Sequence record: PZ452578.1
Source: a phage
DNA length: 64,000 bases
Direction: 5' to 3' (one strand)
The notes under the pieces were generated by a model that made no database searches, was not told where the DNA came from, and was given only the letters and a program-made list of their open reading frames with translations. Within the stretch, counting starts at the first letter, position 1, and the number at the start of each line of letters is the position of its first letter. The position numbers were made by a program, and so were the translations under genes. Positions 3,401 through 35,853 of the stretch are shown here, piece by piece.

Positions 3401-3636
3401 AGTACGCCATACACCCTTTGTGCTTCAACTAATCCATCAAAATCCAGTTTAAGATGCGATATTTGATCGCCATCACCTGGATTTACAATTACTAATACTG
3501 AACGAGGAGTTTCGGTAATAACACGAACCGATGTTTCAGGAAATCGTTCAGAAACCTTATTTACTAATTCCTGTGCAAATAGTTTAACTTTTTCTTGGAA
3601 TTCTTTAACAGTAATTGGTTTTTCACTTAGTAGCAT
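3397..3636 (-). CDS. hypothetical protein (79 aa)
   Basis: Track ORF in overlapping gene chain. Confidence 0.45.
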   Translation of the reverse strand: MLLSEKPITVKEFQEKVKLFAQELVNKVSERFPETSVRVITETPRSVLVIVNPGDGDQISHLKLDFDGLVEAQRVYGVL

Positions 3637-4157
3637 GTTGATCCAAGCTCCTTACTTTCAACGTTTTTAACTAATTTGACAGAAACTAATTCAGCATCTT
3701 GAGTAATCATTACCGGGCCTTCTTCATACTCTTCAAGATATTCTAGAGCTTTCTTTTTAGCTTCTTCCTTCGTATCAGTTTGAGCATAGATATAGAACAT
3801 ACAACCAGTAATACCTACTACTTTCCACTTAATTTCTTTATCAGTTTTAATTTCAAATTTACTTACAGAATCATCTTTTTGAACTTCTTCGAAAAAAGAA
3901 TATTCTAACATATAAGCAATTGAAAATAGCGGGCTAACTTTATAGGATTCACCCATTACATCAACAGCTTTATACCAACAATCATCAATTTCGCGTTTAA
4001 TGCTAATAACATTTTTCGCAGGATCTATTTTTACTTTAAATGAATTTTCCCCAATAAACTGGGCAATTCGTTTATTAGCCCCGCAAGTTTCATTAAAAAT
4101 ATCTTTATATCCAGCTTTAAAGCGATAAACCTTATCTTCTTCAAACCATTCGCTCAT
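3627..4157 (-). CDS. hypothetical protein (176 aa)
   Basis: Track ORF, no recognised motif. Confidence 0.5.
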   Translation of the reverse strand: MSEWFEEDKVYRFKAGYKDIFNETCGANKRIAQFIGENSFKVKIDPAKNVISIKREIDDCWYKAVDVMGESYKVSPLFSIAYMLEYSFFEEVQKDDSVSKFEIKTDKEIKWKVVGITGCMFYIYAQTDTKEEAKKKALEYLEEYEEGPVMITQDAELVSVKLVKNVESKELGSTCY

Positions 4158-4558: not shown

Positions 4559-5759
<1,201 letters not shown>

Positions 5760-5763
<4 letters not shown>

Positions 5764-7194: not shown

Positions 7195-8782
<1,588 letters not shown>

Positions 8783-8810: not shown

Positions 8811-9979
8811 TAAAAATATTTTTTAAAACTCATCATAACTTTATCATCAACATCATTATCAATCTGTGCAACAAGGTAAGATGACAGTTCTACTTCTTGC
8901 GGCGCGGATTGAACATTATCAGAATTAAGGTATTCACGAATCCAAGGATATGGATGTTTAACCGGAGCATCGGTAATTGGGCATGGAAGACCACACTGTT
9001 TCATACGAGATACAGTTAAGTAATCAATAAAGCTCCACATGCTATTTGTATTTAATCCAGGAACATCACCATCTTTAAATAAATGAACTGCCCAATCTTT
9101 TTCTTGGCGGTTAACTTCCATGAAAATATCAACTGCTTCTTGTTCACACTCTTGAGCAATTTTAACCCATTCATTGCCATCAATGCCAAGCTGAAGTTGA
9201 CGAATAATATATTGAGTGCCTTTAAGGTGAAGCTGTTCATCACGAGCAATGAACTTCATAATCTTGGCATTACCTTCCATGATTTCCATATTCTTGTGGA
9301 AGTTAAAGGTACATGCAAAAGATACATAAAAACGAATAGCTTCCAATGCGTTGATTACATGGAGGCAAAGATAAAGAGATTTCATCAGCTCTCGTTTGGC
9401 GTATTCAACGACTTTACCAAGTTCATCTTTGCGCCAACCTTCAGACAAAATTCCTTCGTATTCTTCTTTAGCGTTTTCCCATTCACGGGTTTTAACCAAG
9501 ACATCATCGTAATATCGCCCAATGGACTCAGCACGTTTCATAATAGCTTCATCTAATACAATCTCATCAAACACCTTCGATGGATCAGTATAAAGATTTC
9601 GCATGATATGAGTATATGAACGACTGTGAATAGTTTCACTAAAAGTCCATGTAGCAACCCATGTATCAAGGCTTGGGTCTGAAATTAATGACATAAGTAC
9701 AGCAGATGGTGCACGACCCTGAATGCTATCCAAAAGTGATTGATACTTCAGGTTGTTAGTAAAAATATTTTGCTGATACTGAGGAAGCTTATTAAATTGT
9801 GCAGCATCCATCATCAAGTTTACTTCTTCAGGACGCCAGAAAAATGACAATTGCTTTTCGGTTAAATCTTCAAAAACTTTATGACGTTGAATATCATAAC
9901 GTGCAATACCAAGACCTGAACCGAAGAACATAGGTTCTTTTAAAACATCAACTGGATTTGTATTAAAAACTGTGCTCAT
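8810..9979 (-). CDS. nrdB: ribonucleotide reductase small subunit (389 aa), uninterrupted
   Basis: Continuous 389-aa ORF of T4 NrdB length; position next to nrdA. Confidence 0.9.
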   Translation of the reverse strand: MSTVFNTNPVDVLKEPMFFGSGLGIARYDIQRHKVFEDLTEKQLSFFWRPEEVNLMMDAAQFNKLPQYQQNIFTNNLKYQSLLDSIQGRAPSAVLMSLISDPSLDTWVATWTFSETIHSRSYTHIMRNLYTDPSKVFDEIVLDEAIMKRAESIGRYYDDVLVKTREWENAKEEYEGILSEGWRKDELGKVVEYAKRELMKSLYLCLHVINALEAIRFYVSFACTFNFHKNMEIMEGNAKIMKFIARDEQLHLKGTQYIIRQLQLGIDGNEWVKIAQECEQEAVDIFMEVNRQEKDWAVHLFKDGDVPGLNTNSMWSFIDYLTVSRMKQCGLPCPITDAPVKHPYPWIREYLNSDNVQSAPQEVELSSYLVAQIDNDVDDKVMMSFKKYF

Positions 9980-10030
9980 AAATTTTCCACTTAGTTAATA
10001 GATAGTGACTCGTCCGTGAGTCAAATTATA

Positions 10031-12295
10031 TCATAATTTACAGGATGAACAATCTTCAGCTTTTGGAGTTTCTATTTCATAATCATCAGTACCAGAACCA
10101 TCACGGGTATTATGATAATAGAAATTTTTTCCGCCAAAATACCAAAAATACAAAAGGTCATCAATCATTATTGACATTGGAACCTTTCCTTTTGGAAAAA
10201 TCTGTGGGTCATAATATGTATTCGCTGAAGCTGATTGACATACCCATTTCAGCATAATAGCTACCTGCGTAAGATAAGGTTTATTACCTTTCTTAGCTAA
10301 TTTCCATGTATAATCATAGAGGTCTATGTTATGCTCAATATTGGGCACGACTTGATTAAAGGAGCCCTCTTTTGATTCTTTAACAGAGACTGGTCCACGT
10401 GGAGGCTCGATACCGTTTGTACTGTTAGAAACTTGGGAAGATGACTCACATGGCATAAGTGCTGATAATGTGCTATTACGGATGCCAAAGAGCTTAAGGT
10501 CTTCCCGCAGCGACGACCAGTCACAAACGTATTTTGGAGCTGCGATTTGGTCAATCTTTTTATTGTACCAGTCGATAGGTAATTCGCCTCGAGACCAACG
10601 AGTGTCTGAATAATATTCACAAGGTCCTTTTTCTTTGGCGAGCTTAATGGATGCTTTAATGAGTCCATACTGTAATCTCTCAAATAGTTCATGTGTTAAA
10701 TCGTTAGCATCTTCATAAGAAGCAAAGTTACTTGCCAGCCAAGCTGCATAGTTAGTAACACCTACACCGAGGTTACGACGCTTTTTAGCTTTTTCTGCTT
10801 CAGGAACTGGATATCCTTGGTAATCCAAAAGATTATCAAGAGCACGAACTTGGACTTCTGCCAATTCATTAATTTTATCTTGGTCTTGCCAGTCAAAATT
10901 ATCCAGTACGAATGCAGAGAGAGTACACAATCCAATTTCAGCATCAGGACTATTCACATCATTTGTTGGAATAGCAATTTCACAGCACAAGTTACTCTGA
11001 CGAATAGGTGCCTTTTCACGAATAAACGGAGTATAGTTATTCGTATTATCAATGAACTGTACATAAATCCTTGCTGTTCCTGAACGTTCAGTCATGAGCA
11101 ATTCAAATAGTTCACGGGCTTTAATACGCTTTTTACGAATATTAGGGTCTTTTTCTGCTGCTTCATATAATTCACGGAAACGGTCTTGGTCTTTAAAATA
11201 AGAATAATAAAGCTCGCCACCCATTTCATGCGGACTGAACAAAGTAATGTAATCGTTCTTTCCGAATCGTTCCATCATCAAATCATTCAGTTGAACACCA
11301 TAATCCATATGACGAATGCGGTTTTCTTCTACGCCTTTGTTATTTTTCAAAACGAGAAGATTTTCAACTTCCAAATGCCAAATAGGATAATAAGCAGTAG
11401 CAGCGCCGCCACGAATTCCACCCTGTGAGCATGATTTAACAGCAGTCTGAAAATGTTTCCAAAAAGGAATAACACCAGTATGGCGTACTTCACCCATGCC
11501 AATCTTAGAACCTTCGGCACGAATCATACCAACGTTAATACCAATTCCAGCGCGTTTAGAGATATATTCTACAATCGAAGCGGAAGCCTTATTGATAGAC
11601 TTCAATGAATCACCTGCCTCAATAACAACGCATGAACTAAACTGCCGAGTCGGAGTACGGCAACCAGCCATAATAGGAGTTGGCAATGAAATCTGTCGAG
11701 TAGATACTGCTTCATAAAAACGGATAACGTGTTTTAGTCTATCAACAGGTTCATCTTGATGCAATGCCATTCCAATAGTCATAAATGCAAACTGCGGAGT
11801 TTCATAAATTTGACCAGTGGTTTTATCTTTAACTAGATATTTTTCTTTTAATTGCATCGCTCCGGAATAAGTAAATTCCATATCCCGCTCGTGCTTAATT
11901 TTTGATTCTAAAAATGTAATTTCTTCCGCAGAATATTTTGACAATAATTCAGGGTCATATTTACCTTCATTTACACAGTAAGAAATATGGTCAATAAATG
12001 AACGTGGTTCATACTGCCCATAAACATGCTTACGAAGAGCAAACATTAAACAGCGCGCAGCTACGTATTGATAATCAGGCTCTTCAACTGAAATAGAATT
12101 CGCAGCAGCCTTAATTACAATGGTTTGAATATCATCAGTTGTCATTCCATCACGGAGATAAGATTTAATATTTTCATATAATTCATAAGGATCTACTGAT
12201 GTTCCTTCAGCTGCCCAAGACAAAACTTTAATAATTTTTTGCGGGTCAAAGCTCTGAGAAACACCACTACTTTTGATAACATTAATTAATTGCAT
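10031..12295 (-). CDS. nrdA: ribonucleotide reductase large subunit (754 aa)
   Basis: 754 aa as T4 NrdA; class I RNR large subunit. Confidence 0.9.
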   Translation of the reverse strand: MQLINVIKSSGVSQSFDPQKIIKVLSWAAEGTSVDPYELYENIKSYLRDGMTTDDIQTIVIKAAANSISVEEPDYQYVAARCLMFALRKHVYGQYEPRSFIDHISYCVNEGKYDPELLSKYSAEEITFLESKIKHERDMEFTYSGAMQLKEKYLVKDKTTGQIYETPQFAFMTIGMALHQDEPVDRLKHVIRFYEAVSTRQISLPTPIMAGCRTPTRQFSSCVVIEAGDSLKSINKASASIVEYISKRAGIGINVGMIRAEGSKIGMGEVRHTGVIPFWKHFQTAVKSCSQGGIRGGAATAYYPIWHLEVENLLVLKNNKGVEENRIRHMDYGVQLNDLMMERFGKNDYITLFSPHEMGGELYYSYFKDQDRFRELYEAAEKDPNIRKKRIKARELFELLMTERSGTARIYVQFIDNTNNYTPFIREKAPIRQSNLCCEIAIPTNDVNSPDAEIGLCTLSAFVLDNFDWQDQDKINELAEVQVRALDNLLDYQGYPVPEAEKAKKRRNLGVGVTNYAAWLASNFASYEDANDLTHELFERLQYGLIKASIKLAKEKGPCEYYSDTRWSRGELPIDWYNKKIDQIAAPKYVCDWSSLREDLKLFGIRNSTLSALMPCESSSQVSNSTNGIEPPRGPVSVKESKEGSFNQVVPNIEHNIDLYDYTWKLAKKGNKPYLTQVAIMLKWVCQSASANTYYDPQIFPKGKVPMSIMIDDLLYFWYFGGKNFYYHNTRDGSGTDDYEIETPKAEDCSSCKL

Positions 12296-33370: not shown

Positions 33371-33520
33371 TTACTGCATGACTGTGATAACTGTCATGAT
33401 AACACGTTGAATTCCGAACGCAAGAAGACCTCCTGCTACGGCTGGAACAACGCCTAAACCCGCTAGTAAAATGCTACCAGATACTAATGCAGCGCTTGTA
33501 ATACCTATGAATGGACTCAT
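33371..33520 (-). CDS. small hydrophobic membrane protein (49 aa)
   Basis: ATG 33520 overlaps gene 52 stop (ATGA); below track cutoff; terminator follows. Confidence 0.4.
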   Translation of the reverse strand: MSPFIGITSAALVSGSILLAGLGVVPAVAGGLLAFGIQRVIMTVITVMQ

Positions 33521-34845
33521 TTGATTTCCTCTAAATCTTTGGTGTATTCTGTAACTACATCAGTAGTTTTCCAATATTCGTTTTCTTCTTTTTTGGCTTT
33601 AGCTTCTTCAGCAAGTTTCTTCGCTTCATCGGAAGTCATATGAAAAATATTCATTCCAACTAGTTTATCAACATAAGAAGAATACATATCGATTTTCGAA
33701 AGTTCTTCGGTCAGTTCTTTACGAGTTTTACCCTGTACAACGATTTCACCTGAAATTACTTTCTTAATGAAATGTGCCTTGGCAAAGGCTAAACGAAAAG
33801 CTGATTCAGTTTCTTTAATTTTGTTATCAATTCGTTTTTGGACATAAGTTTTACGAACTTCAACAAAGTCTTTAATTAAATCAACTACGTTATCGTAAAC
33901 TTGTAGTTTTCCTTTCTCATTAATAACCGTAATATTCTGAGAACGACGTTCAATCAATCCGAAGTCTTTCATAATTTTTGCATGGCGTTCTTCTTCGTTA
34001 TCGCTCAAAGAGTATTCTTTGCGGAATTTAACTTTGAAGCCAAAACCATGCTCACCACAAGCATCATCCCATGTAATGAAGCCTTTATCTTCAAGCGGGT
34101 CTAAGATTTTACTCACATAAGTTTCACGATCATACTTATACGGAATCTCAGTGATATGCATTTGAGTTCGTGAAGTAAACTTATATGTTCCACGAATTTC
34201 ATATTGACCGTCAATCTCAACGACTTCACCACGAAATTCTGGGAATTCTACCTTTGGTTTAGTTACTTTCTTTCCTTGAAGAGCTTGTAATACAGCTTTC
34301 TTGACAGAAGAAACACTATGAGGAAGAATGTAAGTTGCATAACCAGTTGCAATACCGGAAACGCCATTAAGAAGAACAGTAGGAATAATAGGCAAATAGA
34401 AAGCAGGCGGAATATGTTCTTTATCTTGATGTACCGGAGCATATTCAGTATCTTTATATACGTTATAGAAATTTTTACTTACACGAGCAAAAATATAACG
34501 ACTTGCCGCTGCCTTTTGGACAGTACGAGAACCAAAGTTTCCTTGACCGTCTAACAAAGGAAAGTTATTATTCCAAGTATTAGCCATCAAAGCCCCCGCA
34601 TCTTGTGCAGAGTTTTCACCATGATGATATCCAAGGTCCGCTACACCGCCTGCGATAGAAGCGAGTTTGTGAAACTTATCTTTATTTCCTCGTGCCAAAT
34701 CAAGAGCTCGAGCAATAACAAATCGTTGAACTGGCTTAAATCCGTCAATCATATTTGGGATAGCACGATTTTCAACCGTGTACATAGCATAAGCCAGTGC
34801 TTCATTATCAATGATACTTTTTAAATCGCGATTATTCAGTTGCAT
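33517..34845 (-). CDS. 52: DNA topoisomerase II medium subunit gp52 (442 aa)
   Basis: 442 aa as T4 gp52; GyrA-like. Confidence 0.9.
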   Translation of the reverse strand: MQLNNRDLKSIIDNEALAYAMYTVENRAIPNMIDGFKPVQRFVIARALDLARGNKDKFHKLASIAGGVADLGYHHGENSAQDAGALMANTWNNNFPLLDGQGNFGSRTVQKAAASRYIFARVSKNFYNVYKDTEYAPVHQDKEHIPPAFYLPIIPTVLLNGVSGIATGYATYILPHSVSSVKKAVLQALQGKKVTKPKVEFPEFRGEVVEIDGQYEIRGTYKFTSRTQMHITEIPYKYDRETYVSKILDPLEDKGFITWDDACGEHGFGFKVKFRKEYSLSDNEEERHAKIMKDFGLIERRSQNITVINEKGKLQVYDNVVDLIKDFVEVRKTYVQKRIDNKIKETESAFRLAFAKAHFIKKVISGEIVVQGKTRKELTEELSKIDMYSSYVDKLVGMNIFHMTSDEAKKLAEEAKAKKEENEYWKTTDVVTEYTKDLEEIK

Positions 34846-34982
34846 AAATTTACCATACTAGTGAATGTAGTGCCATAATAACATCAGAAATGAAAAGCAC
34901 GACTTGAATTAATCCGAACATTACTCCATAATATAGTGCTACCAATAAAGTAGCAAGGGCTAATGAATAGCCCAAGATTTTC

Positions 34983-35141
34983 TTAATCATTAGTAGATAA
35001 CAACACAAATGTTAAATATGCACACATACCCTGGGCTAAAGCTTGTGAAAACACACTGCTAGCATCGATACAGATAGTTAAAACACATGCTACTATCCAA
35101 CAAATAAATGAAATAACTCCTAATAATTTTGCGATATTCAT
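34983..35141 (-). CDS. small membrane protein (52 aa), paralogue of the ac-like ORF
   Basis: Internal ATG 35141 with GAGGAG SD (track ORF 34983..35171 starts at TTG); shares SVF-QA-AQG core with the 35152-35307 ORF. Confidence 0.45.
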   Translation of the reverse strand: MNIAKLLGVISFICWIVACVLTICIDASSVFSQALAQGMCAYLTFVLLSTND

Positions 35142-35151
35142 AATATTCTCC

Positions 35152-35307
35152 TCAACTATTTTTAGAACCAATGTACGCGAATAATGATAAAATCGCTAAT
35201 ACGCCCTGAGCTGATGCTTGCAAAAATACTGAAGTTTCTCCAGTTATTACTGTTCCGATGCATAAAAAGAACCAACAGAAAAAGGCTATACCGTGAACAA
35301 ATTTCAT
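35152..35307 (-). CDS. ac: small membrane protein (51 aa), candidate ac
   Basis: 51 aa (length I recall for T4 ac), position next to stp; GAGGAAAAT SD; below track cutoff. Confidence 0.4.
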   Translation of the reverse strand: MKFVHGIAFFCWFFLCIGTVITGETSVFLQASAQGVLAILSLFAYIGSKNS

Positions 35308-35314
35308 ATTTTCC

Positions 35315-35395
35315 TCACTGGCGTCCGAAGACGCCTTTGGTTTTAAGATTGTTACGATAGAACTGCATCACATGTTCGTTATGGAAATTACTCAT
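35315..35395 (-). CDS. stp: Stp peptide (26 aa)
   Basis: Hand translation gives [26 protein letters not shown], matching my memory of T4 Stp; ATG overlaps ndd stop. Confidence 0.7.
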
Positions 35396-35853
35396 TAATA
35401 TGCCTGCAAAACAAATTTAAAGTTATCAGCCAACATACGGTTCATTTCTTCAAGTGTTTGATACTCAGAATGATGATTACGAGTAAACGCCAAAGCTAAC
35501 TGACCTTTTCCAAATCCCGTCGTCAGAGGTTTCATCTTAGAAGCAGGCAGATAAAATACTGTGTATGGAACATTGTTATTTGCAATAGTACGTGCAAGCT
35601 GAGACCGACGTTGACGAATATGACTTAGAACTGCACTGAATCCTTGCTTAGAACGCTGATTACCTACATAAAATCGTGCTGACACACATGGATTACTAAA
35701 TGGACGACCATCTAATTTACTTACTAAAAAGTAAAATCCAGGTTTAGATAAAATATCTTTATGCGGAGTTCCCAAAAACCACTCACCACCCTTGATTGTA
35801 CCAATAACAGTAGCGCCTGCGTTGTTCAGATCAGTAACAGTCATGTATTTCAT
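35395..35853 (-). CDS. ndd: nucleoid disruption protein Ndd (152 aa)
   Basis: From internal ATG 35853 ([15 protein letters not shown]...) with GAGGAAATTAAT SD; track ORF extends to 35907. Confidence 0.75.

Follow-up and report, generated by a model that had tools for sequence, protein, structure and literature searches.

In the T4 reference annotation, the interval between ndd and gene 52 reads ndd-stp-ac-52.1-52, with a single ac gene. Stp inhibits type Ic restriction enzymes (EcoprrI, EcoR124I) and, in prr+ cells, unmasks PrrC, which cuts tRNA-Lys; the phage enzymes Pnk and Rnl1 repair the cut tRNA, and Stp activity resides in residues 1-18, truncation by the final 8 codons affecting it only moderately (PMC3014915). 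Loss of T4 ac gives acriflavine resistance, as does the substitution G38R in its product, and expression of ac sensitises E. coli to acriflavine (bioRxiv 10.1101/2025.06.30.662393). Acriflavine-resistant T4 plaques appear at roughly 2e-4, or 2.39e6 in about 1e10 (bioRxiv 10.1101/2025.06.30.662393), a frequency attributable to the fact that any knockout of one 51-codon gene is enough. The same study obtained a two-helix architecture for T4 Ac with ESMFold and proposed, from over-expression phenotypes and the predicted structure, that Ac blocks AcrAB-TolC efflux (bioRxiv 10.1101/2025.06.30.662393), a view repeated in PMC13250531. In the literature searched, we found neither a published second ac gene nor an acriflavine phenotype of a phage that carries two in tandem, such as Bas41.

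The sequence analysed here, which we call the window, is a 64,000-nucleotide stretch of phage DNA (PZ452578.1). It is a Tequatrovirus genome whose best match in the region of interest is Escherichia phage FriedrichZschokke (BASEL Bas41), at 99.1% identity; a 1251-bp query over this region matched 580 GenBank phage records, nearly all of them from enterobacterial T4-like phages. Six genes occupy positions 33517-35850 on the minus strand in the order ndd, stp, acA, acB, 52.1 and gene 52, where acA and acB are labels coined in this analysis for two Ac-family genes. The upstream border is ndd (35395-35850), which encodes the nucleoid disruption protein of 151 residues (Pfam PF06591, E = 1.4e-95) and aligns to T4 ndd. 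The downstream border is gene 52 (33517-34845), an open reading frame (ORF) for the 442-residue medium subunit of topoisomerase II, for which tblastn gives 100% identity to T4 gp52 over residues 1-150. We consider it highly probable that the locus is a common natural variant of the ndd-to-52 interval of T4-type phages, in which a pair of ac genes came together via recombination and the two Ac proteins likely act alike.

All three small ORFs described in the initial annotation are present on the minus strand, and their coordinates and sequences are correct. Its account of the interval was right about stp and the ac pair and left out a third gene for a small membrane protein, 52.1 (34850-34990, minus strand). 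The 46-residue hydrophobic product of this gene is a predicted membrane protein that matches PF24129 (DUF7396) over residues 1-46 of 46 (E = 3.5e-23) and differs from T4 gp52.1 by one substitution. The gene lies directly upstream of gene 52 and its start falls within the acB stop region (AATGATTAA), overlapping the acB stop by 8 nt. A hairpin, GGGCTA-TTCAT-TAGCCC, lies in the first 52.1 codons (34957-34973), where the ac slot has its conserved downstream border, and is terminator-like on the plus strand. The statement that the two ac genes had been missed by the automated ORF list needs amendment for acB, which is in that list as a 62-residue ORF with a TTG start (34983-35171); the start codon that homologues conserve is an ATG, at 35141. 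We regard these ORFs as real genes and not chance readings because they match Pfam and PHROG families, because the two ac products align with each other, and because dN/dS from pairwise comparison with homologues stays below 1 in every case that allowed an estimate, although with about 50 codons per gene the ratios are noisy.

The stp gene (35315-35395, minus strand) follows ndd directly and precedes ac, as expected of a T4-type genome, and its ATG has one base in common with the ndd stop (TAATG). The peptide had been recognised as T4 Stp, and this identification is borne out: all 26 residues are identical to annotated T4 Stp (NP_049878), with 75.3 bits against PF08133 (cut-off 25) and E = 4e-21 against PHROG 6763. 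By analogy with the identical T4 peptide, Stp would here block type Ic restriction and unmask the PrrC anticodon nuclease for tRNA-Lys in prr+ hosts, and the products of pseT and rnlA would then repair the damage. Both members of this tRNA repair pair are encoded in the window, on the minus strand: tblastn with T4 Pnk located pseT (polynucleotide kinase/phosphatase) at 4562-5461, and tblastn with T4 Rnl1 located rnlA (RNA ligase 1) at 7198-8319. The pseT product is only 91% identical to its T4 counterpart (over 301 residues), compared with 98.7% (over 374 residues) for that of rnlA. ORFs of 176 residues (3627-4157, minus strand) and 100 residues (5461-5763, minus strand) sit at breaks in the alignment with T4, the former between cd.3 and pseT, the latter between pseT and pseT.1. 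Also missing from the window, relative to T4, are the nrdB group I intron with I-TevIII, of roughly 600 bp (at 9312-9315), and a roughly 700-bp nrdB.1-mobE segment, in place of which about 55 bp are present (at 9979-10035).

Codons 21-25 of stp (G-V-F-G-R) encode a perfect hairpin of the C(UUCG)G type, GGCGUC-UUCG-GACGCC (35320-35335, minus strand), which is found in both the minimum free energy and centroid folds and immediately precedes the acA Shine-Dalgarno sequence. Several genera retain it, the changes in it being limited to synonymous ones compatible with G.U pairing. Since the hairpin is kept though the last 8 Stp residues are reported to be largely dispensable, the constraint at the stp 3' end may fall on the RNA. 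On the plus strand, the hairpin followed by TTTGGTTTTA scores as terminator-like. A second Stp allele, found in T2 (locus L052, 632-715), T6, vB_EcoM_F1 (locus L053, 632-718) and about 30 further records, is identical to that of T4 up to residue 18, then diverges (…NNLKNFGILGSKNS) and has no hairpin.

Downstream of stp, acA (35152-35307, minus strand) and acB (34983-35141, minus strand) encode proteins of 51 and 52 residues that begin MKFVHGIAFFCW… and MNIAKLLGVISFICW…, respectively. A strong Shine-Dalgarno sequence had been ascribed to each and is present: GAGGA stands 4 nt upstream of the acA ATG and overlaps the stp TGA, and GAGGAG stands 6 nt upstream of the acB ATG and overlaps the acA TGA. 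The proposal that these are paralogous hydrophobic proteins sharing a CW...SVF.QA.AQG core is upheld, and they are true paralogues of T4 Ac, itself of 51 residues (NP_049877) as had been stated. Both are full-length matches to PHROG 2501 (E = 4.9e-26 for acA and 3.7e-25 for acB), and aligning the two proteins gives 43% identity over 40 residues (E = 6e-10). The core W…SVFxQxxAQG comprises W12, S26-V27-F28, Q30 and A33-Q34-G35 in acA, and W15, S29-V30-F31, Q33 and A36-Q37-G38 in acB. Positions conserved among 18 distinct members of the family are the Trp of helix 1, the Thr that precedes the turn, and the stretch (S/T)V-x-(S/L)Q-x-x-(A/P)Q(G) that opens helix 2. The Gly of AQG, equivalent to G38 of T4 Ac, is G35 in acA and G38 in acB. 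A family HMM found no further Ac-family copies in the 64-kb window beyond these two. NCBIfam gave nothing meaningful and the Pfam release used has no model of the Ac family; two homologues carry the precomputed tag PF26944.1.

Comparison with the T4 ndd-52 interval identifies acB as the orthologue of T4 ac and acA as the extra gene. In a three-way DNA alignment, T4 shows a clean gap of 166 bp that corresponds exactly to acA and a 10-bp linker. The acB allele of the window has one extra Thr near the C-terminus relative to T4 Ac and is the commonest in the genus, with 330 phage records at 99% identity or more by tblastn, while the T4-type lineage as a whole is found in 463 records. PP01, which carries this allele, is reported to be still acriflavine-sensitive (bioRxiv 10.1101/2025.06.30.662393). 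In T2 (LC348380, the L052 record), codon 11 of ac has a TCA-to-TAA nonsense change and the gene is annotated as a 13-codon remnant; this strain should be acridine-resistant.

Prediction of membrane segments, suggested in the initial annotation, gave by hydropathy two hydrophobic stretches in each Ac protein with a short polar segment between them. An AlphaFold2 model of acA, built from a nine-sequence alignment, has a helix at residues 2-22, a turn at 23-26 and a second helix at 27-50 (mean pLDDT 75.8). Each Ac protein is thus predicted to be a hairpin of two helices and ~50 residues that sits in the inner membrane. By extension from T4 Ac, the probable effect of either protein is a higher acridine concentration in infected cells, most likely, if the published proposal is right, through interference with AcrAB-TolC efflux; we regard the efflux mechanism itself as an even call. 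For acA, it is membership in the family that suggests an effect on acridine sensitivity. Because the fold and every conserved residue are common to both, acA and acB are best read as working alike.

The tandem pair is a minority state of the genus that is already in the databases. Of the 448 GenBank phage records that match a 131-bp probe for the acA-acB junction, 51 cover at least 80% of it; acA itself occurs at full length and 95% identity or more in 48 phage records, all of these close carriers having it intact. Duplicate RefSeq and GenBank entries are counted in both figures. The pair is present in about a tenth of the sequenced relatives, and many of their records already name both genes "acridine resistance". 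These frequencies are taken from GenBank phages because a survey of IMG/VR with an Ndd query gave only five Tequatrovirus loci, all with a single ac. Among 37 IMG/VR loci and the GenBank loci compared with them, two Ac copies were seen only among those of Tequatrovirus. It had been argued that the arrangement would be ordinary, and no duplication, if T4 already had the same two ORFs annotated. T4 has a single ac, yet an arrangement present in 51 of 448 records and often annotated is ordinary for the genus all the same.

The same set of loci shows what else can occupy this slot. Throughout it, ndd and gene 52 stay neighbours while the 250-860 bp between them vary and encode, in various combinations, Stp, Ac, 52.1 and members of three further families of hydrophobic proteins of 43-61 residues. 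In the Tevenvirinae, the interval is a site of shuffling for at least five unrelated families of this size and character (loci L006, L011-L043, L046 and L049-L051): Ac; one with the motif G(A/V)W(V/T)P(S/G); one with ER(L/I)xxxCGV, directly after ndd; a 43-residue family with LPAT(A/G)(I/V)SS; and 52.1. We considered whether these five belong to one superfamily and rejected it, as all pairwise hhalign probabilities were below 2%. All first genes after stp have CAGTGAGGAAAATATG in common, and the cassette borders are reused. Genes directly before 52.1 tend to end …ND*, because the sequence at that junction, given above for acB, contains the 52.1 start. Truncated copies of the 52.1 5' end lie between cassettes (L013, 2289-2363; L014, 2457-2531; L006, about 1160-1185), REP4 being among the phages that have them; they look like recombination footprints at the 52.1 border.

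How the two ac genes came to stand side by side can be read at the acA 3' end. Comparison with the RB51-type ac and the T2/T6/F1-type stp tail delimits a putative crossover microhomology of 12 nt, GGTTCTAAAAAT, at 35158-35169 (minus strand). The window follows the RB51-type ac up to GGTTC; from GGTTCTAAAAATAGTTGAGGAGAATATTATG on, it is identical to the T2/T6/F1-type succession of stp tail, linker and acB, and the counterpart in RB51 at this junction is GGTTCAAAAAAT. The megablast hits of the junction probe that start at query base 47 mark the same crossover point. This pattern points to recombination through the 12-nt microhomology as the source of a chimeric acA 3' end: the 3' end of an RB51-like ac would have crossed with the 3' end of a T2/T6-like stp within the 12-nt match to give the tandem. 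Here acA represents a second and more variable Ac lineage, one that stands alone in the slot in RB51 and RB33 and, on this account, was brought beside acB by recombination between phages. For the order of events, we infer either that the tandem arose from two single-ac parents or that the single forms arose from a tandem by deletion. The T2/T6-type stp tail was also considered as a simple deletion product of the tandem, but acA has no match to the 15 nt that separate stp codon 18 from GGTTCT, and a single deletion is therefore no explanation for it.

The initial annotation had offered "duplication or module exchange" for the pair. Module exchange fits the chimeric junction and the occurrence of acA-type genes on their own in other phages, and a recent duplication does not fit the divergence of the copies, which are 54% identical in DNA, with a saturated dS of 1.66 and a dN of 0.57. 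That ac was duplicated in tandem within the phage lineage, with the copies diverging later, is a reading that draws on their adjacency, shared orientation, similar length and membership in one family, and on the similar TGA-GGA(G/A)AAT...ATG junction before each gene. Against it, the synonymous sites of the pair are saturated while the flanks, as measured for ndd, stp, 52.1 and the first part of gene 52, show 94-100% identity between the window and twelve other Tequatrovirus phages and T4. An acA-type gene is also found alone in the slot in RB51, RB33, RPN226, UFV-AREG1, ECML-363 and wV7, although the exact acA allele present in the window was not found in any single-ac phage, the closest relative of the single type being 82% identical. 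Duplication from within does not predict that the acA 3' end and linker should be identical to the tail and linker of the T2/T6-type stp, and the distant loci L013, L026 and L034 carry Ac-family genes with a (T/S)V.SQ core, which leans towards a split of the lineages before Tequatrovirus radiated. Taken together, we find tandem duplication highly improbable. Alleles also look mosaic: the acA of T4_ev151 resembles wV7 in its first half and the window in its second.

The two Ac lineages evolve differently: acA-type alleles are variable (dN 0.06-0.25, dN/dS 0.2-0.67), far more so than the almost invariant acB type (dN at most 0.017). This variability, and the fact that T4, T2 and T6 live without acA, would suit a decaying or non-functional passenger beside an acB that alone acts as Ac. 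We think that improbable, as acA is full-length in 48 of 48 close carriers, retains its strong Shine-Dalgarno sequence and all residues that are invariant in the family, the Gly counterpart of T4 G38 among them, and has dN/dS of 0.28-0.67 and not about 1; moreover, in RB51- and RB33-like phages a gene of this type is the only ac. It is possible, though we lean against it, that the two proteins are non-redundant, acting on different membrane targets or host variants or jointly as a hetero-oligomer. The lineages have long diverged and are both maintained, acA is unusually diverse compared with the flanks, as expected of a locus that interacts with the host, and the ndd-52 slot swaps several unrelated small membrane proteins across the subfamily; yet the conserved core common to both favours one target, and most relatives get by with one copy. 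A more speculative extension, to which we give little credence, is that the ac slot is a host-interaction locus under diversifying pressure, in which the invariant and the variable Ac lineages would hit different envelope targets or pump variants. Were this so, phages with two Ac proteins would gain breadth, and would be without the escape by single-mutation loss of function from acridine-like natural intercalators. Our preferred reading remains that of two recombined lineages whose products likely work alike.

The discovery value of the locus is small, in that its gene families, its gene order and the tandem itself have all been deposited already, and often annotated. Its interest lies in what it says about the family: the "ac" genes of T4-like phages are of two lineages that are only about 43% identical, and in many records just one of the pair is named, or stp and 52.1 are absent from the annotation. 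A phage with both copies is a natural experiment on whether the second lineage does the same job, and so bears on what Ac is for.

Set beside the described systems, each part of the locus has a close counterpart. T4 Stp has the same sequence, and its gene likewise overlaps the ndd stop and carries the UUCG hairpin at its 3' end, with no difference from the window; Stp of Bas41 differs by H5Y and R25S. T4 Ac matches acB at every aligned residue and its gene has the same position and the same overlap with 52.1, the one difference being the extra Thr (…LLSTND in acB, …LLSND in T4). The model of acA agrees with the published two-helix picture of T4 Ac. The Ac proteins of RB51 (YP_002854217) and RB33 (AIT74898) are 76% and 71% identical to acA, respectively, and have the MKFV…FFCW…TGETSVFLQ…AQG layout and the stp junction in common with it. 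RB51 and RB33 have no other ac gene, and theirs ends …KND*, as single acA-type genes do because their stop overlaps the 52.1 start, whereas acA in the window ends …KNS* and is followed by the linker and acB. The closest counterparts of the whole are the tandem-ac Tequatroviruses in GenBank (FriedrichZschokke/Bas41, ECML-134, Aplg8, pSs-1, Sf22, Yersinia phage PST and others), which have the same ndd-stp-acA-acB-52.1-52 order and are 96-99% identical to the window at the nucleotide level, with point differences only.
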